A DNA stretch of 64,000 bases, taken from IMG/VR virus record IMGVR_UViG_3300033062_002687; one strand, 5' to 3'. A model generated the notes under the pieces. The model did not search any database, had not been told where the DNA came from, and saw only the letters and a program-made list of their open reading frames with translations. Below, piece by piece: positions 10,256-63,925 of the stretch. The DNA comes from a virus. Taxonomy: Duplodnaviria > Heunggongvirae > Uroviricota > Caudoviricetes. The first letter of the stretch is position 1; every line of letters begins with the position of its first letter. Both the position numbers and the translations under genes were made by a program.

Positions 10256-10264
10256 TCATATCAC

Positions 10265-17532: not shown

Positions 17533-18863
17533 GCAAGATCCCCTCTGAATTCGACCTGCTTAAGATTCGAATTGTAAACAAACCTGCCTTTTCCATTGCA
17601 AACCCTGATGATTTCCTTCTGGTATAAAAAGATCTTGTTTATGATCTTTTCAAAATTCTTCCATGATACATCATTTGGCTTTAATGCTGTACTCAGTGCA
17701 AGATAATCCAATGCCTCCTTATGGGAAATCATTCGTTCTATAATAGGCTGCAGATCAATTGAACTAACATTGCCTGTGGTCATAACATCCCAGCTGAAAT
17801 CCCCTGATTCCCTTTCCTTCAGCCTTAGCTGATTGCAATCGAAGCACCTGACGTGACCATGGCCTAATGGCAATGGCTTTCCGCAGTCAACACATTTTGG
17901 ACTTGTGATAGGATGATCACGCTGCATATATTGGGGTTCGATTGGTTTCCTTGTTTCCTCTGGCTTAAGCGTTTCATGAAAGATTGGCTTTTCGATATCT
18001 GCCTTTGCTTCTACATCAGATATCTTTCCACGCTTTTTGAGATGCCACATATAGTTAGAGATGGTGTTTCTCTTGACTCCCAAAGCCCTGGCCAAATCAC
18101 CACGAGTCATCTTATCCATGTTTTCGTAAACAAACTTAATGTGCTCTTCCTGCTTACCTGGATATCTTTTCTTCTGAAGCTTGCCCTGCTTTTGCAAGAT
18201 GAAGATAGAATTCCTAACAGCGTATTCTGACAGACCAAATTTCTTCGCTATTGCTTTTGCATTCTTTGTTCTGTACATTAATTTGATCTCATCAATGTTT
18301 GACAAGAGAGTATTCATTGTCGCGCCATATCGCCTTCTTTTATCAAACTTCTTGATAACTTTAGGCCTTTCTGTATGATGATATGTCGGCTCTTTATTTC
18401 GTACATATCCATGCGCATCTGGATCAAGCTGTATCTTGTTCGAATAATATTTCTGCCTTCTGTTTCCAATCCAGGTTTTGATGAACCCGTCCTTTATTGG
18501 TTTCCTTAGAATTTTCCTGAATCTCGCAATATCAGGCCCTGAGTGATGCCCCAATATCCTATTCGTCAGTTCGGTTATTCCGATAGGATTCTTCGCAGAA
18601 TCAACGATGGCTACTGCAGCATTAATTATCTCATCGCTGCTTTTCTGGAATCTACTTTTTCTCCATCCATGAGCTTTCTGCTTTGAATGATCTAAAGCAA
18701 TTGATCGTTTAACTATTGCTTTCTCATCTTTTAATAAACCTTGAATCACTGCCCTTGTCTCCTCTCCATTTCCATTCTCTGCTTTTTGTAATTCCTCAAA
18801 CTCAATAAAATCCTTCATGTCAGTGAAGGATATCTTCTGACCCTTCCATTCAATTTCAATCAT
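17529..18863 (-). CDS. multi-HTH DNA-binding protein with C-terminal zinc ribbon (444 aa)
   Basis: At least two HTH-like segments (AIAKKFGLSEYAVRNSIFILQKQGKL; MTRGDLARALGVKRNTISNYMWHLKKRG) and CVDCGK...CFDC. Confidence 0.5.
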   Translation of the reverse strand: MIEIEWKGQKISFTDMKDFIEFEELQKAENGNGEETRAVIQGLLKDEKAIVKRSIALDHSKQKAHGWRKSRFQKSSDEIINAAVAIVDSAKNPIGITELTNRILGHHSGPDIARFRKILRKPIKDGFIKTWIGNRRQKYYSNKIQLDPDAHGYVRNKEPTYHHTERPKVIKKFDKRRRYGATMNTLLSNIDEIKLMYRTKNAKAIAKKFGLSEYAVRNSIFILQKQGKLQKKRYPGKQEEHIKFVYENMDKMTRGDLARALGVKRNTISNYMWHLKKRGKISDVEAKADIEKPIFHETLKPEETRKPIEPQYMQRDHPITSPKCVDCGKPLPLGHGHVRCFDCNQLRLKERESGDFSWDVMTTGNVSSIDLQPIIERMISHKEALDYLALSTALKPNDVSWKNFEKIINKIFLYQKEIIRVCNGKGRFVYNSNLKQVEFRGDLA

Positions 18864-25614: not shown

Positions 25615-26337
25615 TCAGAATCCTCCTCCGCCGCCGCCGAATGAGCCGCCGCTGAATCCTCCTGATGATGAACTGCCGCCTGACCATCCACCACCGCTTC
25701 CTACAAAGCCAATTCCGCCTCCACCACCTGACAGTCCAGCTCCTACAATAGCAATAAATAATACGATAGATATCAGGATAATGATTACTAATAAAAGAGG
25801 CATTGATTTTCCATCTGCCTTACCAAGCGCTGATTCGTTTCCTGTTGTGTTCATTCCAATTTCTTTTGAGATCTCATCGAGAATGTAATTGTAGCCGTTG
25901 TAATATTCGTTCTTGTCGAAATAGATACGACTTGCACGACCTATGCGGGCAACCTTTGCATCGTTGAGTGTACTTTCGATACCGCGGCCTGTTGCAATAG
26001 CTCCCTGCTTAGTGGATGTTACCCACATGATGACAACGCCATTGTCTGTCTCTGAGCTGCCAACACCTGCCTTCTCACCAAGACGATTGGCATAAGTAAC
26101 CCGATCCTCTCCTCCTGTATCCTTGATGCTGACTATAGCGATTTCGACAGTTGTCTTTGCCTTGATGTCAGCGATCTTATCGTGAAGCTGTGTTTGCTCT
26201 GTTGGTGTAAGAAGATGCTCGTAATCATTTACATAGCCTGAGAGTAATGGATAGTCTGTAATTGCAGCTGTAGCAGAATGAACAGCAATCAAACCAAGTA
26301 TAATCATCCATTTAAAACCATTTGACATTTCTTTCAT
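25615..26337 (-). CDS. TPM-domain (TLP18.3/Psb32/MOLO-1) protein with C-terminal TM and Gly/Ser-rich tail
   Basis: Signal peptide. SGYVNDYEHLLTPTEQTQL...NGVVIMWV...IGRASRIYFDKNEYYNGY matches the TPM domain. Then TM and SGGGGGIGFVGSGGGWSGGSSSSGGFSGGSFGGGGGGF. Confidence 0.8.
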   Translation of the reverse strand: MKEMSNGFKWMIILGLIAVHSATAAITDYPLLSGYVNDYEHLLTPTEQTQLHDKIADIKAKTTVEIAIVSIKDTGGEDRVTYANRLGEKAGVGSSETDNGVVIMWVTSTKQGAIATGRGIESTLNDAKVARIGRASRIYFDKNEYYNGYNYILDEISKEIGMNTTGNESALGKADGKSMPLLLVIIILISIVLFIAIVGAGLSGGGGGIGFVGSGGGWSGGSSSSGGFSGGSFGGGGGGF

Positions 26338-28309: not shown

Positions 28310-29680
28310 TTACTTGCCCTTCTGCTTCTCTTCTGCTTTAGGTTCTGCCTGCTTGTTGCCAAGCATTATGCCCAGGTCGTTTGGTCTTGCCAATCTGTTG
28401 AGGACAGATTCTGCAGCCGAGTCATTGCTGACTGTTATGGCCTGAAGAATCTTTCCGACATCGAATCCTGCCTTGTCACCATCTGACCCGGCGAAGACAC
28501 GCATCTGAGAGCTCTTCAATGCCTCTGCACCTGCAACTCCAACTGCCTGCTGCATCGCAACAATCTTCTCCGCAACGAGTGCCCTGATAGCTGCATCCTG
28601 GAACTTGTTCAATGCTGCCTGCAGCTTTTCCTTGGCATCAGCTTCTGCATAACCTTTCTCCCTGATCGGGGCAGCTTCTCCCTTTGCTTCCTCCTCTCTT
28701 TGGAGCCTTGTACCCTGACCTACCAGCTGCTTTTGAAGCTTGTTGATCTCCTCAACTTCTTTGGCCTGGTTTGCCTGAACAATTGCTTTTTCCTTGTCGA
28801 TCTGAGCCAGCTTAACCCTGTTGACCTGCTCGACATCAAGCTCAGCTTCCCTTGCAATCTTCTGCTGAACAGCCACAAACTTGTTCTTCTCCTGCTCCCT
28901 TTTGGCTATCTCCTGCTCCTTTGAGATCTCCCTAATCTTTGCCAATTCCTCTGACTCAGCTTCCTTAAGCCTTGCTGTCTTTATCTGCTCAGCATTTTTC
29001 TGCCTCATCTCTGAGTTGATCTGCTGCTCGATGATGGATGAGATGTCTGCAATGACATGCGACTCCTCTCCATGCTCCTGCTTGTTCGGATCCTTGAAGT
29101 CAATCAATTCTATGTCCTTCAGATCAAGACCCCAAATAGAAAGGACTTCTGTCAAAGGCGCCTGAATCGAATCAATGATTGCTTTTCTGTCATTGATAAT
29201 CTCTCTTATTGGCCTCTTGGTGGTTACATCTCTTATGGTTGCCTGGACTACCTGAGATACCTGATTCGTGAGGTCTTCGATCTTTCCGCTGAATCTCTTT
29301 GCTGCCTCAACTGGCTGCTTGACTGTCACGTATGCAATGATGTTGCAGACGAACCTTGCTCGATCCTTGTCGAACGCAAGGAAGTCAGGCACATTTATTG
29401 GTATGACGTTCAGAGGAATTCTGTGAACCTCCATACCTACATTGCCAATAAAGAACCAGCTTGGTATTTTGAAATAAGCTGATCTTGTCTTAAGCGGTTT
29501 GCCTTTGCCGTCTTCTTCTGTCACTTCAGTCCCATACTCTGGCTGAGATGAAAACACTCTTATCTTCCTTCCCTGGATAACAACATCTGCATAATTGGCT
29601 GGAACGATTGTGTACAAACTTGCGAACACAATGAAAGCAATCACTGCAGCGATTATTACCGCTATAATTAGCCCGATCAT
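28310..29680 (-). CDS. SPFH/band-7 (flotillin-like) membrane protein, 456 aa
   Basis: N-terminal TM, SPFH-like core, then a long EA/KQ-rich coiled coil (EAESEELAKIREISKEQEIAKREQE...) as in flotillins/YqiK. Confidence 0.75.
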   Translation of the reverse strand: MIGLIIAVIIAAVIAFIVFASLYTIVPANYADVVIQGRKIRVFSSQPEYGTEVTEEDGKGKPLKTRSAYFKIPSWFFIGNVGMEVHRIPLNVIPINVPDFLAFDKDRARFVCNIIAYVTVKQPVEAAKRFSGKIEDLTNQVSQVVQATIRDVTTKRPIREIINDRKAIIDSIQAPLTEVLSIWGLDLKDIELIDFKDPNKQEHGEESHVIADISSIIEQQINSEMRQKNAEQIKTARLKEAESEELAKIREISKEQEIAKREQEKNKFVAVQQKIAREAELDVEQVNRVKLAQIDKEKAIVQANQAKEVEEINKLQKQLVGQGTRLQREEEAKGEAAPIREKGYAEADAKEKLQAALNKFQDAAIRALVAEKIVAMQQAVGVAGAEALKSSQMRVFAGSDGDKAGFDVGKILQAITVSNDSAAESVLNRLARPNDLGIMLGNKQAEPKAEEKQKGK

Positions 29681-35831: not shown

Positions 35832-36479
35832 TCAGCCCTCGACTTCTTTATGACGAGCACCTGTATGCCAATCATACATGTCCTTTCTGAGCTTTCCCAT
35901 CTTGCCTGTTGAAGGCTGAACAAAAACAACACCTTCGACAAATCCATTTTTCATTATCTCGTCGCGCTTAGTGTTATCTGCATGCAGCATCAGATTGTAA
36001 AGAGGCATCAATGTCTTTAACCATTCTGACATAGATTCAAATGTCTTGGGATATTTCCCCCAGCTTTTGAATGCAAGATGCTTTCTACAGAATGTTTCGA
36101 AAGGAATCCATCTATGCTCCTTGAGATTATAAGGATTACCATTTATCTTTGGTCCGATAAGCTCACCAAAATGCTGACCATCTGGTAAGAATTCCATGTA
36201 ACCTTTTTCATATGAATTAAGAACACCTTCAATGATATACTTCTTGCCTTTGTTAAAGAAAGGAATCCTTTCTGTTCGATTCCAGACACTGGTAATAACT
36301 CCATCTTGGATTAAGATAGAAACATTAGTTCCATGAAGTTTTTCAGTGGCAAGCACGGTAGGATCATTGAATACCCAATCATATCCTTCGGTTATCTCAT
36401 TAGTTACAAGATATGCTCCATCAATAACCTTTCGCACAAATGGCGAATCCATTTTAGGCATGTCGTGAATTTCTATCAT
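35832..36479 (-). CDS. ATP-dependent RNA ligase, Rnl2-like minimal nucleotidyltransferase
   Basis: Motif I EKLHGTN (T4 Rnl2 KIHGTN); motif III HFGELIG; motif IV FVEGVVFVQ; motif V KMGKLRK. Confidence 0.6.
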   Translation of the reverse strand: MIEIHDMPKMDSPFVRKVIDGAYLVTNEITEGYDWVFNDPTVLATEKLHGTNVSILIQDGVITSVWNRTERIPFFNKGKKYIIEGVLNSYEKGYMEFLPDGQHFGELIGPKINGNPYNLKEHRWIPFETFCRKHLAFKSWGKYPKTFESMSEWLKTLMPLYNLMLHADNTKRDEIMKNGFVEGVVFVQPSTGKMGKLRKDMYDWHTGARHKEVEG

Positions 36480-37291
36480 TTGTCCGCCTCCACTTCTTTA
36501 GTTATACCCTTAAATGTTGGCATGCGCAATGCACCATTTGATGCCTTGCTGAGATATTGTATTGTCAATTCTGCAGAACCTGATTCATCTATCAGGCGCT
36601 TTACTTTACTGTGCATGCTGCCTGCGACAAGAACTCTGATTCCTTTCTTGTTTGTTACTGTAATGCCTGCAGAATTGGCTTCGTAGCCATCAAAGACGAT
36701 TGAGCTCTCCTTCCAACATTTGACTTTGAGCCAGTCGGTTGACCGCTTGCCTTCATGATAGATTGATCCAGGACGCTTGAGAACTATACCTTCCTTCTTG
36801 TTCTCTTTCATAATCCTAAAGAAGTTTTCTGGATCATTAAATGAACCGATGTATTTTATGTTGTTTCCGAAGAAAAACCTAAGCTCCATTATATTCGACT
36901 GACGCTCTTCATAGGTGCAGATACGAAGCTCATTGTTATCTACTTCTAAGCAATCAAAGATGCAGAATTTTACTGGAAGGCATTTTGCAAGGATGCTGAT
37001 TCTTCCCGGGTTATTGTTAAGATCCCGTGTGAGAACATCTGTAAAGACTTCGGACTTTGCAACGATCTCGCCGTCAAAGATGAAGTGCTTGTCGCACGGC
37101 GTGATGCATTCCTTTAGCTCAGGATACCTGTGCGTGATATCAACACCTCTCCTGTTTGTTATCTTTATTGCACCGTGGTTGTATTCCAGGATCGCTCGAA
37201 TACCGTCCTTCTTTTCCTGGCATTGCCATTCCTTGTACTTTGGCAAATCACTTTCCTTAATTTCCGAACACAACATTGGTTGGACGCTCAT
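36476..37291 (-). CDS. ATP-dependent DNA ligase (minimal, 271 aa)
   Basis: Motif I KKDGIRAI; motif III FIFDGEIV; motif IV EGIVLKRP; motif V DWLKVK. Size like Chlorella-virus/T7-type ligases. Confidence 0.8.
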   Translation of the reverse strand: MSVQPMLCSEIKESDLPKYKEWQCQEKKDGIRAILEYNHGAIKITNRRGVDITHRYPELKECITPCDKHFIFDGEIVAKSEVFTDVLTRDLNNNPGRISILAKCLPVKFCIFDCLEVDNNELRICTYEERQSNIMELRFFFGNNIKYIGSFNDPENFFRIMKENKKEGIVLKRPGSIYHEGKRSTDWLKVKCWKESSIVFDGYEANSAGITVTNKKGIRVLVAGSMHSKVKRLIDESGSAELTIQYLSKASNGALRMPTFKGITKEVEADK

Positions 37292-41191: not shown

Positions 41192-42183
41192 GTAACTTTC
41201 TCCATAATTCGTCTTTTCTAATCCTAAGAATTTTTATTGGCTTACACACAACTATAACATCACTTGATAATTTTTCAGTTGTCAATCCATTATCCCATTT
41301 GATTTTCAACCAGAAGTTTTTACCAGATTGATCAATCTTAGGAAAGATTATAGCTATCAATTCCTTAATTGGATTTGATTTCATTTTGCAGTTTCCCCAC
41401 GAAATAGAATGATGTTGCTACAACTATCCATGACAATAAACAGAGCCATCCGCCAAATACGCCGAATTAAGGGAGCACACCCAGGCTGCTATCAGGATAA
41501 TTACATTCACCAACAATATCTACCAAAAGATGGACAAGAAGAAATTAATTAATTATCTCTCCTTTATCTTGCAATTGTTATTTTGCAATCATCTGGAAAC
41601 AATAGGAGAAGATTGGAAGTAAATTCATTGTATCCCTCTAATATAGCATCACTTAGGAGTTCATTTTTATTCCTCCAATTCTTCTTCTGGAACCAATGGA
41701 CAGAAAGCTGAATCCAACCAAGATAAAATCTTGTCTGCTGTCTGCTTGTCTTTAGCTGATAAACTTTTGCTTTCACATAACCTTTTAATTAATTCATAAG
41801 CTCCCATGCGAATCACCCAAAATAATCTTGTTTGTGACTGCTGAATGTTTTTCCTTTTGGCTTATCCTTTGTCCAACCGGCTTCTGCACTATCACGAGTC
41901 ACTATATTATCCTTTGCAGCTTCTTCTGCCTCACGTTTTCTCATACGCAAGATGTCTACTTCCTTTCTTGCATTGGATTCGAGATGCTTCTGCAATAACT
42001 CCTTAAGCTTCTTGTCCAAGCCAACAAGGATTAAGTCCATATCTGAAAGGGTATTGAACAGCTTGTGCGAGTTGATATTTATTATCACGTCTGTTCCTAT
42101 GGCATGTATCTCTACATTAGGCATCTCTGGCTTATCCTCAAGCACATTCACAACAACCATCTGTTTCATTCCTGGCATCATAT

Positions 42184-42774
42184 TCATTGTTCACCACCTA
42201 TGTCTAATAATTTTTTCAATATCTTAAAGTTTCTTACCTCGGATAAATGAGGATACTGACATTTCTGAAAATATAATTCAGCAACTTGCTTGTATTCGTG
42301 AACCTTTGCCTTGACACTCTTATCGCTTCTAAGACAACAATTTAACGAATAATCATCATTTATGAAATAAAGACTTTTGAAGCTACTTGAATTAGATATA
42401 TTTAATGAAACCCTTTTTGAAGAAATATTATCTGAGACGCTGATAATCGCTTTTATCTTACCATTATCTCTCTGTTCGAACCTTTTATAAATACCATCCT
42501 GCTTGTTACTTGATATCCATTTATTAAACCTTGCTAATCTTTTCTTGGATTTAAGCTCAAGAGCAAACTGAATAAGATTTATCTCATTGTCAAGAGCTTC
42601 TATAATTCCTTCTGATACTTCTGAATTGATGCAAAGACTTGTCATTAGATTCTCAAAAATCTCCTTGTCTTTAAGTAATTTTTTATTGTATTCCTTCAAG
42701 CTTGATTCATCATCATAATCATAACGCCTACGAGTTACGAAATCAAATTCAGAATGCACTCTTGGATGAATCAT
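42184..42774 (-). CDS. hypothetical protein (196 aa)
   Basis: ORF. Confidence 0.4.
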   Translation of the reverse strand: MIHPRVHSEFDFVTRRRYDYDDESSLKEYNKKLLKDKEIFENLMTSLCINSEVSEGIIEALDNEINLIQFALELKSKKRLARFNKWISSNKQDGIYKRFEQRDNGKIKAIISVSDNISSKRVSLNISNSSSFKSLYFINDDYSLNCCLRSDKSVKAKVHEYKQVAELYFQKCQYPHLSEVRNFKILKKLLDIGGEQ

Positions 42775-44404: not shown

Positions 44405-45205
44405 TCACACCGTTATTGTTGCCTGAAGCTGTGCAAGAAGGTCTTGGTTGTCCTTCTGCTTAACTGCATGCTCGATTACTATCTGCTCTCCATTCAGCTT
44501 CTTCTGGATAAGCTCTGAGAATCTTTGCTCCCTCTCGCTTACCAAGTCTTCGACCTTGAAATCTGCCAAGGACATCTTGTCGATTATCTGCTTGAACAAT
44601 CCAAGCTCATCTTTGGAAAGCTCTGCTGATTCAACAGGCACATTCTCAATATCCCGCATCTCATCAGCAAACCTGAGCTGATACATCAGAAGCCTGTTCT
44701 TATATGGCATGACTACCGCATACCTCTCGTTGCTCCTGATTGCTGACTTGCAAAGGAGAACCTTTCCGAACTTGCTTAATGACTCCACGAGCAAGTTGTA
44801 GTGCTTGAATACCGCCTTATTCTCGGGGCACAGGAAATACGGCTTGTGATACATCAGGCAATCAACATCTACACTATCTAAAAAGCCAACTCCCTTTATA
44901 CAATCAGGAGCTTCTCCCTGCATGTATTCCATGTCCTGCTCGGTAAAGGTAACGACTTGGTCTTTGGTCACCTTATATCCTTTCCTGCATTGTGTTATTG
45001 GAACTTCCCTTCCACAATCCGTGCATACTGACTTGTTGCCAACTGCTCCATTGCAATCAGGGCAGAATCTTGAAAACCCTGAACTCTCATTTTCACTTAT
45101 GGCAGCATATACCTTTGTCGGACAATTAAACAATCCGATTTGAATGCCTACTGTCTTTAGGCTTCTTGCTCCTGCCATGCTCACATCTAATTTTGGTTTT
45201 GCCAT
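44405..45205 (-). CDS. ku: Ku-like DNA end-binding protein
   Basis: GIQIGLFNCPTKVYAAI vs bacterial Ku SIAFGLVNVPVKVYSAT. FSRFCPDCNG...SVCTDCGREV vs Mtb Ku FHQVH...RVCEACGEVV. Length 266 aa. Confidence 0.6.
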   Translation of the reverse strand: MAKPKLDVSMAGARSLKTVGIQIGLFNCPTKVYAAISENESSGFSRFCPDCNGAVGNKSVCTDCGREVPITQCRKGYKVTKDQVVTFTEQDMEYMQGEAPDCIKGVGFLDSVDVDCLMYHKPYFLCPENKAVFKHYNLLVESLSKFGKVLLCKSAIRSNERYAVVMPYKNRLLMYQLRFADEMRDIENVPVESAELSKDELGLFKQIIDKMSLADFKVEDLVSEREQRFSELIQKKLNGEQIVIEHAVKQKDNQDLLAQLQATITV

Positions 45206-45580
45206 TTATTTTCCCTCAAATATCTTGTGCTCTATCTCTTCCGCTGTTATGATTCCTTTGTCAAGTAAAAGAGACAAGAGATTCATAAAAGTATTCTTCA
45301 AATTGTTTAATGTCATGTCCTGATAAAATTCCTTCTCATCCCGTCCTGCCTGTTCAGCTGCCTTACGAATCTCTTTATTAATTGTGTCAAATGGATTTTC
45401 ATACATATGATTCACCTTAATCAGTAGAAGTTGACCAAAGAGCATAGGCGGTACAATGAATAATTAACGCCATAATTACCAATGGTTGCAATTCCTTTGT
45501 AGCTTTACCAAGCAAAATACCAAGGAGAACTGCTCCAACTAAAGACAAAAATTTAGCCAATTCTTGTTTTACTTCTGTCA

Positions 45581-45949
45581 TTAATAATCACCTTTCTTTT
45601 CCCAGACAGTTAATCTGTCTTCGGGAATGCAGTAGATAAAATATGTCCTTCCGACAATCATGTTGTCCAAGTCCATTGAAGATGGATTATGAAGAGAGAC
45701 AGGATGTGTGTGCCAAAAGCCTATGAACTTAAGAGGAGCTCCTGTCACGAATAAGTCTGAATCTTCTGTTGTCTTTCCGAGCTCAACAGGATTCATCTTG
45801 TACCAAAGAGCACCACCCTGATTCTCAATCTGCCTGACAATGTACTTCTTTTTCTTAATCTTATCCTGAAGAACAACACCGCAAATCTCGTCGCTTGGAT
45901 ATCCACACTTGCTCACACAGTCCTTAATCTTGTTTTTGATTTCTTCCAT
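45581..45949 (-). CDS. JAMM/MPN+ metalloprotease (JAB)
   Basis: Start placed at MEEIK. E...FWHTHPVSLHNPSSMD = ExnHxHx7Sx2D JAMM motif. Confidence 0.6.
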   Translation of the reverse strand: MEEIKNKIKDCVSKCGYPSDEICGVVLQDKIKKKKYIVRQIENQGGALWYKMNPVELGKTTEDSDLFVTGAPLKFIGFWHTHPVSLHNPSSMDLDNMIVGRTYFIYCIPEDRLTVWEKKGDY

Positions 45950-46012
45950 TTTAGCACATGAGAAAGAATTTAAAATAAAAAAATAAAAAAAGATGGGGTT
46001 ATTCACCCCACC

Positions 46013-46255
46013 TTACTGCCCACCAACAAGCTGAGAGGCAAGAGTTACGTCTCTCGCATTGGTCAATGTCTCGTTAAGTGCAGCCTTATCGTCTGCACTA
46101 TCGCAAGATGTGTACTTGCCGTCGACATACAACCACTTACCGCTGGCAGTCTCCTGTTCTATCCTTCCTATTGCCTCACTCACAGGCATGGTGAGGGTTT
46201 CGTGTCCATGAATCCTGCTTTCTATCCGCAGGGTTATGGTTTTTACTTCTCCCAT
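46013..46255 (-). CDS. ubiquitin-like beta-grasp protein with C-terminal GG-Q
   Basis: 80 aa ending ...ASQLVGGQ: diglycine followed by one residue, as in ThiS/MoaD/CysO-type precursors trimmed by JAMM. Confidence 0.5.
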   Translation of the reverse strand: MGEVKTITLRIESRIHGHETLTMPVSEAIGRIEQETASGKWLYVDGKYTSCDSADDKAALNETLTNARDVTLASQLVGGQ

Positions 46256-46265
46256 TTTTCCACCT

Positions 46266-46856
46266 CTATATTCTTACGACGAGGCTCATTGGATTTTGAA
46301 TCCCTCGTGTCCAGTTCAATATCAACTGGCTTCCTATTGCTGCGATAATGACATTTCCATTCTGTATGATGCCTTGGTCAAGCTCATGCTTTAGCTGACA
46401 GCTATTGCCTTCCTCTGTTATCTCTCCCTTAAGAAATTTCTGCAACTCTGCCTGTGGCATCTCTTTAGTGAAGAAAGCGAATGACCTTCCTTCACTTCTT
46501 AAATCTATGAAGTATGTATCTGTAGAGAAACAGTAGTCATATATAAGTTTTCTGGTTGCTGAGTTATCAACTGCACTCACTATAAGGTCGTAATCCTTGA
46601 ACTGGTCTACGGACTTTATCTTATCCTTCTTGTAGTGAAAACAGTATCTGTCCCCTAATACCTCAGCCTTGTTCTTAAATATGTCTGTCTTTTCAAAGAG
46701 CTGATACTTGATGTTCTTAAGCTCAACTGAATCCATATCAGTTATTGTTATCGTAAAGTCATCAATATCTATCTGTCCATTCAACACAAGCCGGTTAAGC
46801 TCTCTTACAAGATATCCGCCAATCCCGCCTAGCCCAATTATTAAAATTCTCTTCAT
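46266..46856 (-). CDS. E1-like ThiF/MoeB-family adenylyltransferase (minimal, 196 aa)
   Basis: IIGLGGIGGYLV Rossmann P-loop; DMDSVELKNIKYQLF (D.D.ve.sNl.RQ); DLIVSAVDNSATRKLI. Confidence 0.6.
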   Translation of the reverse strand: MKRILIIGLGGIGGYLVRELNRLVLNGQIDIDDFTITITDMDSVELKNIKYQLFEKTDIFKNKAEVLGDRYCFHYKKDKIKSVDQFKDYDLIVSAVDNSATRKLIYDYCFSTDTYFIDLRSEGRSFAFFTKEMPQAELQKFLKGEITEEGNSCQLKHELDQGIIQNGNVIIAAIGSQLILNWTRGIQNPMSLVVRI

Positions 46857-47124
46857 AATTTTTTCCTCTTATTTCCATGCGTCAAAATTACTTTTTCCCT
46901 AAGCTCTGATAGTTTCATTCTGTCACCTCAATCTTGCCTGAATTATCTTGAGCTCTTCCTGAAGCTCGTTGATACAATCCTCTTCTTCCTTTTTGATTCT
47001 CTTTAGAATAGGAGTCAGCTCTATGAGAAAGTCCAATTCGAGCTGACGATTTTCGAGAAGATAGTTACAAGCAAGAACCCTGTTCTTCTTGTTCTGGATT
47101 GTCAGCTCTATCTGCTTAGATATA

Positions 47125-47781
47125 TCAGATGACATTCATAACCTCCTCCTTAATCTTCTGGACTCTTAATGATTCCTCGTGCTGTTTTTGAATAGCTTCT
47201 GCAACCATATTTTTTTCCTTTGCAAGTTTATCAAGTATTAGATTGGCAGTACCTAATGGAGCATTGAATCCCTCTGGCTTATAATGAAGAACTGCATTAA
47301 TCTTGTTAAGAGCCTGAGCAACATCAACAACATTCAAGTTTCCATTCATAATTGTGGTTTCGTATGCCATGTATTTCTTTGCTGTCTTAACCACCATGAT
47401 GCAATATGAATCCATAATCTTTGCATAAGCAACGACACATGGAGAATGCCAATAGCTACTCAATGTTCTTGATGTTCCATAAGAGAATCCCCTGCGACCT
47501 ATTAGCATAAATGGAGAAACTTTATGGTCCTTAAGAGTCTGCTGAATGTTCTGATAAAGTTCCCACATAGTAAACTGATTACCAGAATCGATGATTTTGC
47601 TTCCATTGAATACTTCATAATTAAAACCATCATTTCTATTTGTTGATTCCCTCTGCAAAGAATATCCTTTCTCTTCAAATAACACTTCCATTTTAGAAGG
47701 CTCTCCACCTTCCCAATAAGATTTCTGTTCGTATGTCCTGATTGGTTTCACTTTATCTAAATTTGGTTTTTTTGTTTCCAT
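47125..47781 (-). CDS. hypothetical protein (218 aa)
   Basis: ORF immediately upstream of the Ubl triad; no UBC HPN motif seen. Confidence 0.4.
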   Translation of the reverse strand: METKKPNLDKVKPIRTYEQKSYWEGGEPSKMEVLFEEKGYSLQRESTNRNDGFNYEVFNGSKIIDSGNQFTMWELYQNIQQTLKDHKVSPFMLIGRRGFSYGTSRTLSSYWHSPCVVAYAKIMDSYCIMVVKTAKKYMAYETTIMNGNLNVVDVAQALNKINAVLHYKPEGFNAPLGTANLILDKLAKEKNMVAEAIQKQHEESLRVQKIKEEVMNVI

Positions 47782-47878
47782 TTTTATTCACCGCCATTGT
47801 TAAATATAAGAGGGAAGCAGGAATATGAATCTGCGTGTGACATAATTCTGTCGTCCTGCTTCCCGAGGTATCAAATCA

Positions 47879-48547
47879 TCATTTGTTCTTAAAGTCAATG
47901 CCGAATTCTTTTAATACCTTGTTCTTGACAGCTTCAATCTTTATTTTCTTGTCCTTCTCCTCTTTAGTCAAGAGCCAATCAAGAGGAATAAATTCATAAG
48001 ACGAATCCTCTTTCAAATGATTGACATAACCTTCACAATCTTCATCAACAGGCTTCTTAACAGCATTGAACGACAATGATTTAAGCTTTCCATCCCTAAG
48101 TTTATAAGCAATAATAAATCTGTTGCTTGCACATAAACGCTTGATGCTTCTTGTATCATATGCCTCAACTGTTCCAAGATAATAATAATGATTTGTAGGC
48201 GTTCCATTCCATCCGCCTAAATATTTCTGTTCATGATAAAACACAGCATATCTGTTTTTCTTTAGCTCATTCTTATTGATAATAGCTCTTTCGGCATGAA
48301 GAACAGCATCGAGCCTTATGATTGCAAACTTCACTTTAAGACCTTTGTAATCCCGAATCTTTTCTTCTGCATGAGCTTTTGCCTGCTCAAGTGTATCGAA
48401 CATAGAATCGCTATCAGAAACATAAAGTGTTGGATACTGATTCGACATATATATTACGGCGTATTTTCCTGTGCCTATCACACCATCTGTATGTTGAGAA
48501 ACTTTAGTATCATACACATGAACAAATCCCCATTTTGCTATTACCAT
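47879..48547 (-). CDS. tandem paralogue 1 (222 aa)
   Basis: Shares GTG(K/Q)Y, AIIRLDAV, KKNRYAVFY, YLGTVEAYD and YE(F/L)IP.DWLL motifs with the next two genes. Confidence 0.5.
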   Translation of the reverse strand: MVIAKWGFVHVYDTKVSQHTDGVIGTGKYAVIYMSNQYPTLYVSDSDSMFDTLEQAKAHAEEKIRDYKGLKVKFAIIRLDAVLHAERAIINKNELKKNRYAVFYHEQKYLGGWNGTPTNHYYYLGTVEAYDTRSIKRLCASNRFIIAYKLRDGKLKSLSFNAVKKPVDEDCEGYVNHLKEDSSYEFIPLDWLLTKEEKDKKIKIEAVKNKVLKEFGIDFKNK

Positions 48548-48710
48548 TAGTCCACCTCATCTCCATACTTATGATTAATAGACATATTCCATCCATATAT
48601 TGATACGATTTCCTTCCAACCTTCTCGTTTCAATCCCTCACACACTTTCCGAGTATATGTATGTTTGGTTTTCTTTCCTTTTTGTAATATGTATACGTGC
48701 CCCATTTTAT

Positions 48711-49490
48711 TCAACCTCTACCAAGGATTTTTTCTTTGACTTCTTTTATTTTTTGTTCTTTTGCTTGTTTCTTTTTTTCATCCTGCTTATCAAGCAACCA
48801 TTCGAAAGGAATCAGCTCGTATGAACCACTTGTCTTTAAATTGTTTTGCCATCTGATGATACTGTCCTTATCATATTCCCAGTCAGCTCTTGATGTTCTG
48901 AATTCCTCGATACTAACTATAGGAGGAATTGTATGTTCCTTTGGAACAATTTTTCCTTTTCTCAAAGGATAAATATAGATGTGAGCATTATACTTGTCAA
49001 CATATTTTTCCACATCCTTTTTATCATATCCTTCAACAGTACCAAGATAAACTGTTCTCCAATCTTGATTTCTCTGCAGTAAATGTGATAGAGTTAAGTG
49101 ATTGACCATATGATGAGTAGTTCTTTTATCCCATGATTCACATATAAATTCATAGAGGACAGCATACCTTTTCTTTTTGCATTTGTCTTTATTGAGAACT
49201 TCATTTACTGCCTCAACATAAGCATCGACTCTTAAGATGACAAAATTATATCTTTGTCCTTTACTATATTGAATCATATTGTTGACAAATTCTTTTGCAT
49301 CATCCAACGAATCAAAAGTTGTTGATTCCTTTCCGAAATGCTTAGCTTCAATAGACAAATCATAAGCAAGATTAATAGAATGATAATTGTTTATGATACG
49401 AACAATGAATTGCCCTGTCCCTATCTTTAGATTGTCCCTGTATCTTTTTTTATAGGAAGCAATGTATCCTCGCTTAATTCCCATCAGCAA
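48711..49490 (-). CDS. tandem paralogue 2 (259 aa)
   Basis: Same motif set (GTGQFIV, FVILRVDAY, KKKRYAVLY, YLGTVEGYD, YELIPFEWLL). Confidence 0.5.
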   Translation of the reverse strand: MLMGIKRGYIASYKKRYRDNLKIGTGQFIVRIINNYHSINLAYDLSIEAKHFGKESTTFDSLDDAKEFVNNMIQYSKGQRYNFVILRVDAYVEAVNEVLNKDKCKKKRYAVLYEFICESWDKRTTHHMVNHLTLSHLLQRNQDWRTVYLGTVEGYDKKDVEKYVDKYNAHIYIYPLRKGKIVPKEHTIPPIVSIEEFRTSRADWEYDKDSIIRWQNNLKTSGSYELIPFEWLLDKQDEKKKQAKEQKIKEVKEKILGRG

Positions 49491-50157
49491 TCACCTGTTT
49501 CATCACTTCATCCTTGATTTTCTCAATCCTTTTTATTTTTTTCTTGTCAACAACCCAATCAACAGGAATATCGTCATATGATTTATTTTTTTTAAGTCTC
49601 GAAAGCAAATCATCAACATCCTGCTCATCCAATACATGATGATAAAGCTCTTTTATCTTTCCTAATGGATAATTAAAAGATTCGGTAATTTTTCCATCTT
49701 TTAGTTTATGAATCAGCAAATCAAAGCTATTAGTGCACCATCTTCTGACATCTATAATATCATAAGCTTCGATTGTCCCAACATAAAAAGCCTTTTCGAT
49801 TGTCGCTATTCCATATTTCCTGATATTGTATTTAACAAAAACAGCATATCTGCTTTTCTTACACTCTTTTTTATTAATTATGACTTGCTGAGGATATGAA
49901 ACAGCATCGAGACGAATTATAGCATACACTTCTCGCCTTCCTTTCTTTTCCTTTGTCAATTTCTCGACACAAGCTTTAGCATCTTCAAAAGTATCATAAA
50001 TAGTTTTGAGATGAGATGTATCAGCATAATAACCGACATCATATCCTATACGAAGAAGACTATCATTTAAACTACGAACAATATATTGCCCTGTTCCAAC
50101 AGGAAGACCATAACACTTATTCTTTGAAAATCTCGCTTTCCAAACCCGTTTAATCAT
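49474..50157 (-). CDS. tandem paralogue 3 (227 aa)
   Basis: Same motif set (GTGQYIV, YAIIRLDAV, KKSRYAVFV, YVGTIEAYD, YDDIPVDWVV). Confidence 0.5.
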   Translation of the reverse strand: MIKRVWKARFSKNKCYGLPVGTGQYIVRSLNDSLLRIGYDVGYYADTSHLKTIYDTFEDAKACVEKLTKEKKGRREVYAIIRLDAVSYPQQVIINKKECKKSRYAVFVKYNIRKYGIATIEKAFYVGTIEAYDIIDVRRWCTNSFDLLIHKLKDGKITESFNYPLGKIKELYHHVLDEQDVDDLLSRLKKNKSYDDIPVDWVVDKKKIKRIEKIKDEVMKQVIADGN

Positions 50158-50169
50158 TTAATCCACCAT

Positions 50170-52101
50170 TCATTGAGCTTTCAACCCTAAAGTATGTATG
50201 TTACGTGCAATTAAAGAATCGTTATATAGTGCATATAAGCGGGCAACGAGCTTATCGTTCTGGAAGCTTGAACTCACCGTCTTATCTACAATGCAGATGT
50301 AGCTCTTTGATGCAACATCATATACCTTTGCAGACTTTGCAAGGAAGTATTGTTTTCCGCTCAGACCTGTTACGAAATATCCCCTTTCATTCATCATCTC
50401 AGCTTCCTTGGCTTTAGTATTCTTGATTGCGTCTTTCAGGAATTCCTCACTTCTTTTTATTGCCAACAGATGTTCCTTGAATCCTTCCCGGATTAGAGAA
50501 GCAATCTCAGATGAATCAAGCTGAGGGTCAAATATATCTGAGGCAAAAAAAGCAATCGATTCCTCAAGACTCAAATATCGTTGCCGTCTTGCACGATTAA
50601 GTGTACTTCTTGCAATTATCTTGCTCGAATTCTTAATCCTGATATTCTTTTCACCAAGTTTCACATAATTATGATTCTTAATTCTTGTTACAGGAAGCTT
50701 CAATGTCTTTTCATTCTGGTCGTGGTCAAAACTGCTGTTTGCTGAGACAACAAAGTGAAGCCCTGCATTAAGCATGTCGTGGAAGAGCAGACTGCATTTT
50801 GAAACCTGCTTAAGAAGCTTATTATAATCCTCAACATTGTCAAAGCATATCGCCCTCTTGAGCATCTCAACAATTTCTTCCTTGTTGATTCGCACATCAT
50901 TTATTTTCCATTGGGAAGATATGGTGTCATCTGATTTTTTCTTGGTCTTTCTTTCAACCTTTACACGCAAGCTACCAAGTGTCCCGTCAAACTCCCTATC
51001 ATCGAGCCTCTCACAAAAGCGATTATATAAATCGTTAAAATCAATATCATCAATCCTATCAAGATTAACATTGTCCTTGATGAAGCTTAAGATTGTTATC
51101 TCTTTCTCGTTCCATCGTTCCCTTGTTCGCCTTTCTGAAACCTTACCAGAAATCATCTGGTCTCCAAGAGAGATTGCCTTGTTTGAAAAGGTAATGCCCT
51201 TGATTGTCAAAGGCTCAATGGATAACCTTTCAAATCTTTTCTCTGTCTCCTTCTTGACAAGAACCTGCATTTCCTGCTCTTCCCTTTGCCTCTGGATTTT
51301 CAGCTTATTTATCTTGACTACCTCGTTATATCTTGCCCTGTCCACGAGAGTAAATGTGTATTGGTTTGGTGCACATAATTTCAGGTAGTCGAATTCAATG
51401 TCAGCCAATGGCAAATCATCGAGAACAAATGTTGAATGAGTAAACTTTCTTCCGACATCAATGTAATTATACTTCTGGTCTTTATTATTGAACGCCATTA
51501 TCTTGAACTTATCACCAGAGCTTGTCGTTGCAAGACTGAACCTATGATTATCTAATTCCCAGACCTTGACAATCTGATGGATGTTTGGATGAACATCTTT
51601 TATCTCGAATTTCTCAGGCATCACATCATTAAAGAGCCAATACCAATGCTTAAGGTCAACATCCATTGAATTATACTTGATATCATTACCTCTTCTCTCG
51701 GCATTATTCTTCATAACAATCCTTATCCATGACTTAAATTCATCAACACTTCTGAATTCAATAATATTCTGCATTGGAAAGTTTTCACTTTTAGCCTTCA
51801 AGAAATAATGGATTGAATCACAATCTTCCTTCGAGACATTGAATAAGAATTCCTTTTCCCGAATTATCCTGCATGGATAAGTCAATTCTCTCTTCTTATT
51901 AACATCCCTTATGAAAATAGTGTTATCTATTCCCTTATAATTTTTATCATACTCGACACCATACTCCTTGTCACCCTTCCTGAATAAGATTAAAACACCT
52001 TCTGATTCTGGTATCAAAGATTCCTCAAGCTGTTTCAATTCTGCTTCTGTCAATCCTAAATTATACACTTCATTGCTTACCCTTAGAGTTTTTATATCCA
52101 T
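50170..52101 (-). CDS. large hypothetical protein (about 643 aa)
   Basis: Start placed at MDIK with GAGGT SD. No recognisable catalytic motif. Confidence 0.5.
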   Translation of the reverse strand: MDIKTLRVSNEVYNLGLTEAELKQLEESLIPESEGVLILFRKGDKEYGVEYDKNYKGIDNTIFIRDVNKKRELTYPCRIIREKEFLFNVSKEDCDSIHYFLKAKSENFPMQNIIEFRSVDEFKSWIRIVMKNNAERRGNDIKYNSMDVDLKHWYWLFNDVMPEKFEIKDVHPNIHQIVKVWELDNHRFSLATTSSGDKFKIMAFNNKDQKYNYIDVGRKFTHSTFVLDDLPLADIEFDYLKLCAPNQYTFTLVDRARYNEVVKINKLKIQRQREEQEMQVLVKKETEKRFERLSIEPLTIKGITFSNKAISLGDQMISGKVSERRTRERWNEKEITILSFIKDNVNLDRIDDIDFNDLYNRFCERLDDREFDGTLGSLRVKVERKTKKKSDDTISSQWKINDVRINKEEIVEMLKRAICFDNVEDYNKLLKQVSKCSLLFHDMLNAGLHFVVSANSSFDHDQNEKTLKLPVTRIKNHNYVKLGEKNIRIKNSSKIIARSTLNRARRQRYLSLEESIAFFASDIFDPQLDSSEIASLIREGFKEHLLAIKRSEEFLKDAIKNTKAKEAEMMNERGYFVTGLSGKQYFLAKSAKVYDVASKSYICIVDKTVSSSFQNDKLVARLYALYNDSLIARNIHTLGLKAQ

Positions 52102-61201: not shown

Positions 61202-62716
61202 TTAGACCACAATTTTATTGATCTCTGTCAGAACTGAACCGCCTTTTTCTAGCGCTGCAAGCATATCGAAGATCTTGTCACTCCAACCTGCTATCAGATA
61301 GACATCTTTCTCGACCATGTCGATTGGTGTAGTACCGTATCCGGCCATGTCAAAGAGATAGAGCTTTGCATTTGGATTTTTAGCCTTGTATTTATGCCAG
61401 AGATTTGCGAACTTGTCGAAGTTTTCATCATCCATATCATCAAGTGTTATAGTCGTGGAATCCCATAGCTGACAATCTGTAAAGAACATTACCTTGTCTG
61501 CTGAGATACCAGCCTTTAGCATATGTTCAAGAACTTTCCAGCCATTTGTGCTATAACCAACTTCACCTTCACAATCCCTTAATTTAACTACGTTGTCCAG
61601 GATACTTGATTTGCTAAGCTGTTTAATCTTCCAATCATCACCAAAGATACCGGTGATAACTTTCTTGCATCTATGCTGCAGCAACATGCCTAACATCAGG
61701 CCGATATCGTAATACTGTACGGCGCTATGCTTTGAAATAGATGCCTGCATGCTACCGCTAACGTCACAAGCAATTAGCACAGTAGTCTTATCATTATAAC
61801 CCTGGATATTAGCTGCTGAGACTTTTACAGCACTTTCAAGTGCATCCAAGATCATGCTTGTTGAAGCATTAGTGTTATTTGAAAGCTCGAGATATGCTGA
61901 CAAGAACCTGAATGGAAGCTGCTTGCTTTTTAAAACCTCTTTTTCATTGCTGAGATAACTAACAACCTTGCTAAGATTATTTACATCAGCATCAAGAAGG
62001 TTACGCAAATTTCTTAATGTTGCCATGTAAAAAAGTTTATTCGAATCAATAAGATGTTCCCAAACAGCTTTCTTTTTTGCCGCATCCTTGCCGCATGCTG
62101 AGATCATGACTTCCCATGTATCTGGAGTTGCCAATGTATCTGTTGCGATCCTTTTGAATAATTCTTCTCTTTTTTTATCCTCTGGCTTAGGATGAGCAAG
62201 GAATAGAGCATCACGTAGCTTCACTGCACCTGCCTGATTGTATTTAGCAAAATTATATTCGTCGAATTTGAAGAATGCTTTTGCAAGACCTAGTTTGATC
62301 TGATGAGAAAGCTTGCTTAATTTCTTTGTGTCAATTCTTGCATTAGCCACCTGGTAAAACGCAAGCAGCTCTGTGATTTCATCAGCCCTCTGAATAACCC
62401 TTTCAGTAAGCTTGCTTACAAGCTGATCACCCTTATGGATCTTTGCAAGTTCAACTGTTAGAACAAGAGGAATAGATCTTAAGTGCATCTGTTCCCTGGC
62501 ATAGACAGCTAGTTTAGCAACAAATTCTGGCTTGACTTTTGCTACAAGATCTTTGATTCTCTTTAATGTAGCAGTCTCTTTCTCATAGAATTTGTCCTGC
62601 AGACCTGCAGTGCATACGAGAGAATACAGCTCAACTTCAGGAGCTAATGTATAGGCAATCGCGCCTTCATAATTCAATGTTTTTCTTTGGTTTGTCTGTT
62701 TTTTATTAAATTTCAT
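61202..62716 (-). CDS. rsr: Ro60-like ribonucleoprotein (TROVE domain + C-terminal vWA with MIDAS)
   Basis: 504 aa. MATLRNLRNLL (Ro60 MALRNLGKM); KQLPFRFLSAYLEL (Ro60 RIHPFHILIALETY); LIACDVSGSM MIDAS (Ro60 LLAVDVSASM). Confidence 0.8.
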   Translation of the reverse strand: MKFNKKQTNQRKTLNYEGAIAYTLAPEVELYSLVCTAGLQDKFYEKETATLKRIKDLVAKVKPEFVAKLAVYAREQMHLRSIPLVLTVELAKIHKGDQLVSKLTERVIQRADEITELLAFYQVANARIDTKKLSKLSHQIKLGLAKAFFKFDEYNFAKYNQAGAVKLRDALFLAHPKPEDKKREELFKRIATDTLATPDTWEVMISACGKDAAKKKAVWEHLIDSNKLFYMATLRNLRNLLDADVNNLSKVVSYLSNEKEVLKSKQLPFRFLSAYLELSNNTNASTSMILDALESAVKVSAANIQGYNDKTTVLIACDVSGSMQASISKHSAVQYYDIGLMLGMLLQHRCKKVITGIFGDDWKIKQLSKSSILDNVVKLRDCEGEVGYSTNGWKVLEHMLKAGISADKVMFFTDCQLWDSTTITLDDMDDENFDKFANLWHKYKAKNPNAKLYLFDMAGYGTTPIDMVEKDVYLIAGWSDKIFDMLAALEKGGSVLTEINKIVV

Positions 62717-63013: not shown

Positions 63014-63085
63014 TGCGCCGAGAGGTAATTGAAACCTCATACCGTGCTCGGAAGGCACGTTCCCTGGCCGTTAGGATATCGGCGC
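63014..63085 (-). tRNA. tRNA-Gly (UCC)
   Basis: Manual fold: acceptor GCGCCGA/TCGGCGC (7 bp); D arm TCCT-AACGGCC-AGGG; anticodon arm CGTGC-CTTCCGA-GCACG (U33, anticodon UCC); T arm GAGGT-TTCAATT-ACCTC; discriminator A; no CCA encoded. Begins 1 nt after the HNH stop. Confidence 0.7.
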
Positions 63086-63670
63086 CTAATCGTCTCCTTC
63101 CTCATCATCATACAGATGACTCATGTCGATATCAAGGAATCTCATGAGGATCCTTAGCATCTCCATACTGATCATTATGCCATGCTGATCCCTGTTCATT
63201 CTCCTTAAATCTCTTAGCTGCTTTTTCATCTGCTTCCAGTTTATCTTAACATCCTGATGGATCTTATATGTAGCGCCCCAGAAAGTAATACTGATCTTAC
63301 CTTTATGGAAAGCTGCATGGCAGCGATGGCAAATTGTGATGCAATTCTTCAAGCTGTCTTTACCGTCATTTTTCTGAAATTTAATATGGTGGAGTGTAAT
63401 ACGAGATCCGGATTTATCACAGCCTTCATTCTGGCAAGTAAAGTTATCACGCTGAAATACAACACACTTGACAAAATAACGCTTGTATATCTCATCACGC
63501 ATTGACTTGTCCAGCTTTTTGACTTCATCAGGTTTCCATTCATTGAAGAACTCCTCCTGAGTCTTTACTATTTTGAATTTCTCGTACATATTTATACACA
63601 CTCCAAAAGTACAGGAGCTGAGATTTGCACTCAGTTTCCCGGAGTCACAGTCCGATGTTTTAATCTTCAT
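63086..63670 (-). CDS. HNH endonuclease (homing-endonuclease-like)
   Basis: CQNEGCDKSGSRITLHHIKFQKNDGKDSLKNCITICHRCHAAFH: classic HNH with Zn-binding Cys pairs; flanked by tRNA genes on both sides. Confidence 0.6.
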   Translation of the reverse strand: MKIKTSDCDSGKLSANLSSCTFGVCINMYEKFKIVKTQEEFFNEWKPDEVKKLDKSMRDEIYKRYFVKCVVFQRDNFTCQNEGCDKSGSRITLHHIKFQKNDGKDSLKNCITICHRCHAAFHKGKISITFWGATYKIHQDVKINWKQMKKQLRDLRRMNRDQHGIMISMEMLRILMRFLDIDMSHLYDDEEGDD

Positions 63671-63684
63671 AAACTACTCCTGTA

Positions 63685-63768
63685 TGAGGTAGGCGTGAGT
63701 CGAACACGTAGTGGCAACCTTGCCTATCGGTCTTCAGCCGATTGAGTCTCCCGTTCCTCTACTACCTC
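63685..63768 (-). tRNA. tRNA, class-II-like (long variable arm) with anticodon GAA
   Basis: Acceptor GAGGTAG/CTACCTC; anticodon arm ATCGG-CTGAAGA-CCGAT (U33, GAA); variable hairpin GGCAA-GGT-TTGCC; T arm ACGTG-TTCGACT-CACGC (one A.C mismatch). GAA with a long variable arm is atypical. Confidence 0.5.
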
Positions 63769-63770
63769 GA

Positions 63771-63843
63771 TATCCCTGACCGGATTCGAACCGGTATCCT
63801 AGGCTTCAAGGGCCAATGTCGTTAACCGTTAGACCACAGGGAT
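63771..63843 (-). tRNA. tRNA-Gln(UUG)-like
   Basis: Acceptor ATCCCTG/CAGGGAT; D loop AACGGTTAAC with GG; anticodon stem TTGGC/GCCTA (one U.U), loop CCUUGAA (C33, anticodon UUG); T arm ACCGG-TTCGAAT-CCGGT. Confidence 0.55.
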
Positions 63844-63847
63844 TTAA

Positions 63848-63920
63848 TGGGCCCAACCGGATTCGCACCGGTGTCTCTTGGTTCAGAACCAAGTATGCTT
63901 GTCTACTACACCACAGGCCT
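63848..63920 (-). tRNA. tRNA-Gln(CUG)-like with non-canonical D and T loops
   Basis: Acceptor AGGCCTG/TGGGCCC (A1.C72); D stem GTGT/GCAT with loop lacking GG18-19; anticodon arm CTTGG-TTCTGAA-CCAAG (U33, CUG, A37); T arm ACCGG-TGCGAAT-CCGGT (G55 instead of U55). Confidence 0.5.
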
Positions 63921-63925
63921 ATAAA

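Follow-up and report, generated by a model that had tools for sequence, protein, structure and literature searches.

Gene content and phage setting of the cassette

This work concerns a stretch of 64,000 nucleotides (nt) from a tailed phage (Caudoviricetes, IMG/VR record IMGVR_UViG_3300033062_002687), hereafter the window, taken from the start of a 140-kb metagenomic contig, and in particular three adjacent genes at positions 45581-46856 predicted to encode an E1-like adenylyltransferase, a candidate ubiquitin-like protein (Ubl) and a JAMM metalloprotease (JAB). An earlier note had described these genes as a minimal ubiquitin-like module carried by a phage and followed by a Ku gene, and had seen no E2 enzyme nearby. 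The three open reading frames (ORFs) were indeed present exactly where they had been placed, all on the minus strand. They are co-directional and close-packed, with gaps of 10 nt between E1 and Ubl and of 63 nt between Ubl and JAB. The recurrence of this gene set in phage loci with an E1 identity of only 31-65% places the triad far beyond chance. The term minimal had to be abandoned, as two further proteins of the window, a large one and a homologue of a small protein (SP), are conserved partners of the triad. These components, with lengths in amino acids (aa), are as follows.

50170-52101, minus strand: large conserved partner protein, 643 aa, recognised by profile and linkage; start taken at residue 42 (Met) of the longest ORF, as in the homologues
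46266-46856, minus strand: mini E1-like adenylyltransferase, 196 aa (PF00899 ThiF, E 6.6e-19)
46013-46255, minus strand: candidate ubiquitin-like modifier, 80 aa, ending LVGG-Q, from a family with an invariant Gly-Gly (GG)
45972-46014, minus strand: intrinsic-terminator-like hairpin and U tract
45581-45949, minus strand: JAMM/MPN+ metalloprotease, 122 aa (PF14464 Prok-JAB, E 8.2e-7)
41813-42187, minus strand: SP homologue, over the first ~80 of 124 aa (SP-profile match, E 9.6e-12)

The phage setting previously assumed for the cassette was borne out by the PHROG families matched in the window (32, among 52 ORFs, including DNA/RNA ligases, HNH endonucleases, a virion protein and a Ro60-like protein) and by the occurrence of E1 relatives on at least 415 IMG/VR viral contigs. 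Coding is almost wholly on one strand, and five tRNA genes are present. Comparison by blastn of the 44-48 kb region with 50,697 deposited phage records returned no nucleotide-level relative. The cassette is accompanied in the window by Ku and ligases, and in its relatives by RecU, RNR, dUTPase, ThyX, NT5C, DNA polymerase and a sigma factor, a gene neighbourhood which points to a role at an early or middle stage of infection and not in the assembly of the virion. The association with Ku was not conserved in the other cassette loci.

Conservation and distribution

Homologues of about 196 aa of the E1 numbered 42 in the protein collection. ORFs were called in 94 E1-bearing loci, iterative profiles were built and the proteins were clustered, leading to two clades. 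Clade A (38 loci, including the window) usually shows the tightly packed order large protein, Ubl, JAB, E1, these four genes being adjacent in 28 of the 38 loci, and the four-gene module occupies about 3.5 kb in most relatives. Clade B (56 loci) has the order Ubl, 54-aa protein, 388-aa protein, 288-aa protein, E1, 194-aa protein. Its 388-aa protein is a homologue of the large protein of clade A, covering the C-terminal half of the latter (hhalign probability 97.6, E 5e-12), while the HxH…S..D JAMM motif was found in all 40 copies sampled of its 194-aa protein. The linkage is reciprocal, distant members of the large-protein family having Ubl, Prok-JAB and a ThiF protein of 196-204 aa as neighbours. 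Two minor features of clade B may be mentioned: the 288-aa protein has an N-terminal TFIIB-type zinc ribbon, and the cassette (loci L033-L089; 6242-10972 in L033, for example) lies a few kb from genes for a Cpn60 chaperonin and a DNA ligase.

In the window, five lineage-specific genes stand between the large protein and E1, among which the region 47125-50157 (minus strand) encodes three paralogues (222, 259 and 227 aa) and a 218-aa protein, with no known domains. Only one gene stands there in L098, a relative with 85% identity in E1, in which single copies of two of these intervening families are located downstream of JAB instead. Two ORFs that had been put forward as cryptic E2s, at 47125-47781 (the 218-aa protein) and 45206-45445, are without homologues across the broader set of cassette loci, the former being found only in a close relative.

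Among 185,579 GTDB species genomes, E1 was found on six contigs only, all from metagenome-assembled genomes; all six carried the large protein and five of them Ubl. A tblastn search with the large protein of both clades against deposited phage genomes gave no match. The E1 gave only weak ThiF matches in deposited phages, in Bacillus jumbo phages, the neighbourhoods of which are without the cassette. No description of a phage E1/Ubl/JAB cassette was found in the literature covered, mostly outside the subscription journals, nor in a jumbo-phage survey or a Bil preprint, in which it was specifically looked for. Judging from these sequence comparisons, the triad is part of a conserved, phage-specific module of four to five genes, predicted to be ubiquitin-like, widespread in uncultured phages and larger than first noted. 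We would give an even chance to its being a phage-encoded ubiquitin-like conjugation module, made up of a core of four genes plus an accessory one.

A distant E1-like protein of 336 aa was also observed in the replication module of crAss-like phages (Bacteroides phage DAC15, locus L096, 6650-7660; PhiCrAssBcn), where it is annotated as 'hypothetical' or 'thiamine biosynthesis protein'. Near this gene, a 98-aa ORF of DAC15 (10046-10342) ends with IIGGYED. Profiles of Ubl, JAB and the large protein found no match within ±7 kb, and this locus was treated as a different system.

The E1-like adenylyltransferase

By its profile matches, the predicted product of 46266-46856 belongs to the E1-like/ThiF adenylyltransferase superfamily, in agreement with its earlier identification: its Pfam score reached 68.4 bits, against a gathering cut-off of 28.1 bits (PF00899). 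The profile of the family matched active adenylation domains in the PDB, those of Uba1 (AAD), MccB, Cap2 (1e-6) and ThiF, and the PADLOC E1-E2 model was matched at the superfamily level, below threshold (8.7e-7). In NCBIfam, the best named matches were all far below cut-off (ThiF, 46 vs 275 bits; MoeZ, 28.9 vs 647; MoeB, 25.6 vs 266), the second best being the PRTRC ThiF protein (E 2.6e-11; 43 bits vs a 145-bit cut-off). The protein consists of a single adenylation domain and ends shortly after the crossover region, without a Zn/Ubl-binding domain, a UFD or a rhodanese.

Conservation was high at the positions expected for such an enzyme. GxGGIGS, D40xD42, N48, Q52, K63, D97-N98, R102 and D118xR120, as well as S152-C153-Q154, were kept in at least 97% of 85 non-redundant E1s from both clades. 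In hhalign, the E1 was aligned with residues 28-167 of MoeB (probability 95.8), the MoeB sequence being approximate; D97-N98 and K63 fell in its 'DCTDN' and 'PKVES' regions, and are equivalent to the ATP/Mg-binding Asp and Lys of MoeB (D130 and K86). The alignment stopped short of Cys153, which is found about 22 residues past the last aligned MoeB position; C187 of MoeB is 20 residues past that same position. From its position, and not from the alignment, Cys153 would sit where the crossover-loop cysteine of ThiF/MoeB is expected.

The JAMM metalloprotease

The identification of the 122-aa protein as a JAMM protease was confirmed, with a score of 29.3 bits against the 25-bit gathering cut-off of PF14464. 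Its zinc-site motif is intact (E...H-T-H-P-x6-P-S-x2-D), reading HTHPVSLHNPSSMD in the window with the Glu upstream, and the motif residues E, H, H, P, P, S and D were retained in at least 90% of 24 non-redundant clade-A homologues. The nearest NCBIfam match was desampylase (E 1e-7), followed by Cap3-type isopeptidase models, all of them below cut-off, and many PADLOC JAB models were matched, down to 9e-8.

The ATG at 45949 was retained as the true start of JAB, because the upstream GTG lies inside the terminator-like hairpin and because the homologues begin at that Met. No obvious Shine-Dalgarno sequence precedes JAB, and that of the Ubl gene is good (GAGGTGG). The hairpin, a strong one with a 10-bp stem containing 5 GC pairs and then TTTTTTATTTTTTTATTTT, directly follows the stop codon of Ubl and precedes the start of JAB; it may keep the expression of JAB low relative to that of Ubl.

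The candidate Ubl and its C-terminal tails

The Ubl family comprises more than 60 non-redundant members. G17, within a GH[TDE] turn, and the C-terminal GG were invariant in 38 diverse Ubls, in line with the GG-terminated character already attributed to the protein of the window; the tail past GG was unconserved and had 0-2 residues, with a maximum of 8. The expected relationship to ThiS, MoaD or another known Ubl family was not recovered by profile searches, neither Pfam nor NCBIfam giving a match to the protein of the window and Pfam giving none for the 38 family members. The best PDB profile matches were weak (ubiquitin-derived Affilin, E 0.026; ubiquitin, E 1.3), as were the hhalign comparisons with ubiquitin, ThiS and MoaD (P ~1e-3 to 7e-3). 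Its assignment as a predicted beta-grasp protein is drawn from size, sequence pattern, the invariant GG and gene context.

The tails of Ubl were related to the presence of JAB, being found in 36 of 58 Ubls with JAB and in none of six without (Fisher p=0.005). Among the non-redundant clade-A Ubls, 15 of the 22 with JAB end exactly at GG and seven are tailed (1-4 residues), whereas all six without a detectable JAB end at GG. In clade B, where the JAMM-motif protein is present, 29 of 36 non-redundant Ubls are tailed and seven end at GG. Tails differ moreover between close relatives, as with Q in the window and CF in L098. Since tails occur only alongside JAB and are not conserved between close relatives, trimming past GG by the JAMM protease, as earlier proposed, is supported. 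It cannot however be the sole job of JAB, since 15 of 22 JAB-linked clade-A Ubls already end at GG, and this suggests a second role as a deconjugase.

These data can be confronted with a sulfur-carrier pathway, in which a Ubl of the ThiS/MoaD/CysO type would be trimmed by JAMM, as CysO is by Mec+ and QbsE by QbsD, adenylated by E1 and converted to a thiocarboxylate by a host persulfide, the large Cys protein then thiolating a nucleotide, a tRNA, a DNA base or a cofactor. Such triads classically serve sulfur transfer (PMC1779556). The nearest named E1 models are indeed ThiF, MoeZ and MoeB, the C-terminal half of Ubl shows a ThiS-like pattern (W..DG…V.L…VGG), nucleotide-metabolism neighbours (dUTPase, RNR, NT5C, ThyX) are present in many of the phages, and the large protein contains conserved cysteines. 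By contrast, the E1 is devoid of rhodanese and scores far under the cut-offs of sulfur-pathway equivalogs. In the scan of neighbouring genes in the window and related loci, no rhodanese domain or enzyme accepting sulfur was noticed, nor was a desulfurase, PP-loop or radical-SAM partner seen among the neighbours examined. Most clade-A Ubls need no trimming yet retain JAB, and both the fusion of Ubl to a protein domain and the fold matches of UBC/RWD type, presented below, are more in keeping with conjugation. We thus consider a sulfur-carrier pathway unlikely.

The SP protein

SP, a small protein of about 80 aa, constitutes the fifth component of the cassette. It is encoded by a separate gene between Ubl and E1 in some loci, among them L008, L010, L090 and L006, and is fused directly after Ubl-GG in four others (L005, L018, L023 and L101), Ubl-GG-SP fusions which imply a cleavage after GG. 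The SP profile was built from the standalone genes of the four loci first named and from the fused domains of L005, L018 and L023; the homologue of the window is encoded 3.4 kb downstream of the cassette. The 70-aa ORF at 46923-47135, directly upstream of E1, which is the place of SP in other phages, was considered as a possible SP and rejected, no similarity being found. As a separate observation, the gene of the SP homologue starts within the last bases (ATGA) of a 196-aa ORF at 42184-42774 (minus strand), which ends with LLDIGGEQ; the arrangement echoes the Ubl-GG/SP layout found elsewhere. This ORF was rejected as a Ubl, the Ubl profile not matching it.

The existence of Ubl-SP fusions would also be explained by a non-conjugating processing or assembly device comparable to the lambda tail-assembly proteins I and K, with Ubl as a cleavable chaperone domain for SP and JAB merely releasing it. 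There is a precedent for such a device (PMC1779556), and a weak match of JAB was obtained with a PHROG family named 'tail protein', in which JAB domains of the TAPK type are reflected. Yet E1, with its conserved adenylation residues and Cys, is always present here, whereas the lambda system has none; most Ubls are standalone and end at GG; and the cassette is located in replication or early modules and not in tail modules. This explanation thus appears highly improbable.

The large partner protein and the E2 question

The family of the large protein comprises 573 clusters (50% identity) among 1.84 billion proteins, and in clade A the protein is about 640-870 aa long. R187, G579, Y585, Cys603 and D628 were invariant in 61 sequences; Cys603 occurs in the context YICIVDK, and Cys419 (RAICF) is conserved too. 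In an AlphaFold2 (AF2) model built from a 12-sequence alignment (mean pLDDT 76), the C-terminus is predicted to form a long helix (530-562), a four-strand meander (565-601), the loop carrying Cys603 and two helices (614-634). The 388-aa clade-B homologue retains the Cys, in 'GPICIDNM', and both this motif and 'YICIVDK' resemble, by eye, the E2 motif 'GxICLDIL'. The HPN motif is not present in the C-terminal domain. Pfam gave no credible domain for the 61 full-length proteins, PADLOC and NCBIfam returned no match, and Foldseek gave no significant match, rows for PUR-alpha and metallo-beta-lactamase at E>0.1 being disregarded. The sole recurring weak match of the C-terminal domain was DUF7737 (4 of 27 members, best E 6e-4), on which no literature was found. 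As a moderately supported hypothesis, the C-terminal ~110 aa may be regarded as a candidate E2-like domain, from its predicted UBC-like topology and its invariant Cys603. The statement that no E2 lies near the triad is then probably wrong.

From a mechanistic point of view, a tagging of the SAMP/Urm1 type, for which E1, Ubl and JAB suffice, would not require this protein to be an E2; it would instead serve as the principal substrate, as a scaffold or to provide specificity. Archaeal SAMP and eukaryotic Urm1 are described as conjugating without E2 (PMC9574740). In line with this, the best named match of JAB is desampylase, and there is no sequence evidence for the large protein as an E2. On the other hand, the Cys of the predicted UBC-like loop is invariant in 61 sequences and is kept in the half-size clade-B homologue, the fold matches of the large protein, none of them significant, are enriched for E2/UEV/RWD folds, and so tight a co-evolution over two clades would be surprising for a mere substrate. 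E2-independent tagging therefore seems doubtful to us.

Proposed conjugation pathway

In the conjugation pathway that we favour, Ubl would be made with a disposable tail (Q in the window) or, in some of the phages, as an SP fusion, and JAMM would cut after Gly-Gly, as suggested by the correlation between tails and JAB and by the fusions. The 196-aa E1 would then bind ATP and adenylate the exposed Gly-Gly carboxylate, a chemistry consistent with its conserved residues. Ubl would probably be loaded afterwards on Cys153 of E1 as a thioester, and would pass to Cys603 of the 643-aa protein, in line with the predicted topology, the invariant Cys and the strict gene linkage of the latter. The long and variable N-terminal region of this protein may select the substrate, which would make it an E2/E3 hybrid. 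Finally, JAMM may also remove conjugates, most clade-A Ubls needing no trimming yet keeping JAB.

Several observations weigh against this pathway. The E1 begins 7 residues ahead of the Gly loop and thus has no N-terminal Arg-finger helix (RYxRQ), it reads KNIKYQ in place of NLxRQ, so that the Arg of this motif is missing, and it carries no Ubl- or E2-docking domain. For Ubl, the AF2 model (3-sequence alignment, pLDDT 68) showed a core of beta-beta-alpha-beta-beta order followed by a long helix of doubtful standing, with an unreliable C-terminus, and a Foldseek search with this model gave no match at E<0.5. JAB was not detectable in 10 clade-A loci. Regarding the large protein, the Cys603 loop had a pLDDT below 50; Pfam found no UQ_con or Prok-E2 match in the 61 full-length and 27 C-terminal-domain sequences; PADLOC, NCBIfam and the PDB profile search were all negative for E2; and hhalign of its C-terminus with three eukaryotic E2s, whose sequences were approximate, aligned 'ICI/ICL' only. 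Lastly, no recognisable E3 is present in the module.

Concerning the targets, the cassette lies among early, replication and nucleotide-metabolism genes, so that host or phage proteins involved in takeover or counter-defence are more likely than virion parts. A tagging or counter-defence function may be envisaged, as in the earlier note. It is conceivable, with a probability that we place somewhat below even, that a complete Ubl cascade is encoded by tailed phages from two or more uncultured lineages, in which an E1 of 196 aa, smaller than any yet seen, would work with a Ubl without known sequence relatives, a very large orphan protein combining the roles of E2 and E3, and a JAMM protease acting as deconjugase. 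Such a cascade would covalently tag host or phage proteins in early infection, for example to disarm defences or to redirect replication. If this is true, a function would be offered for the 573-cluster orphan family of the large protein and for the sequence-orphan Ubl family, and the very small E1 would possibly be useful for protein engineering. The compactness of the module, with four genes, makes its synthesis and direct testing feasible.

Relation to known systems

In bacteria, Bil tags phage tail fibres and the Cap2 enzyme of CBASS primes cGAS-like enzymes. Ubl conjugation in the conflict between phages and bacteria has so far been known from the bacterial side, and a phage-owned cascade, if true, would represent the same chemistry used by the virus. 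It would be the mirror image of Bil and CBASS, and a counterpart, in viruses of prokaryotes, of the ubiquitin manipulation practised by eukaryotic viruses. Bacterial operons with E1, E2, JAB and Ubl were predicted as early as 2006, including a Ubl fused to a partner otherwise encoded between Ubl and E1 (PMC1779556). Bil and Bub have since been characterised, and there is a precedent in bacteria for Ubl-E2 fusions cleaved by JAB (PMC11601596). The phage module resembles systems of the Bil, Bub and CBASS types on paper, and is a member of none.

Like the module, Bil (BilABCD) gathers the four functions of Ubl, E2, JAB/JAMM and E1 with no recognisable E3, its E2 being thought to choose the targets (PMC11601596). 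However, Bil is bacterial and anti-phage, whereas the module is on a phage contig. The Bil E1 (BilD) has an IAD-AAD-CYS architecture (PMC11601596), while that of the module is one 196-aa domain, an architecture which also sets it apart from Cap2; the Bil E2 is small and standalone, while the candidate E2 of the module is the tail of a 640-870-aa orphan protein; and no sequence relationship was found between the two systems beyond superfamily domains. Bub (6E/DUF6527) forms oxyesters without catalytic cysteines, in contrast with the conserved Cys of E1 and of the large protein in the module. It is bacterial and its JAB is fused to E1, whereas the phage module has a separate JAB, and the DUF6527 protease was not found with the module. 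As for type II CBASS, the E1 and JAB of the module resemble Cap2 and Cap3 at the superfamily level, with sub-threshold domain matches only; no CD-NTase, E2-E1 fusion or effector was found among the neighbours, and the modifier is a dedicated Ubl, whereas in CBASS it is the enzyme's own C-terminus.

The sulfur-carrier systems ThiF/ThiS, MoeB/MoaD, CysO/Mec+/MoeZ and QbsCDE share with the module an E1-like adenylase and a GG-terminated small protein, to which CysO and Qbs add JAMM trimming past GG. The module differs by its extra large Cys protein, its phage setting and, in the scanned loci, the lack of a rhodanese, ThiG, MoaE or CysM-type acceptor, although host donors are possible. The lambda/T1 tail-assembly proteins I and K are the only phage pairing of Ubl and JAB that was found described, the Ubl being followed there by a C-terminal domain (PMC1779556). 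This pair has no E1, lies in the tail module and has its JAB fused to NlpC/P60, and the phage cassette differs on each of these points. The ThiF protein of PRTRC is likewise carried by mobile elements (plasmids and integrative conjugative elements), but neither ParB nor other PRTRC proteins were seen with the module.

Neighbouring genes in the window

Other genes of the window, outside the cassette, are listed below.

44405-45205, minus strand: Ku homologue (Pfam E 2.9e-34)
28310-29680, minus strand: SPFH/Band-7 protein, accessory gene
25615-26337, minus strand: TPM-domain phosphatase with a Gly-rich tail, accessory gene
17529-18863, minus strand: multi-helix-turn-helix protein, 444 aa, accessory gene

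The Ku homologue has a Cys-rich, zinc-ribbon-like insert at approximately residues 40-72, and an ATP-dependent DNA ligase and an RNA ligase are encoded a few kb from it (35832-37291, minus strand). Finally, a Ro60/TROVE-vWA homologue adjoins the cluster of five tRNA genes (Gly, His, Phe and two Gln; 61202-62716 and 63014-63921, both on the minus strand).

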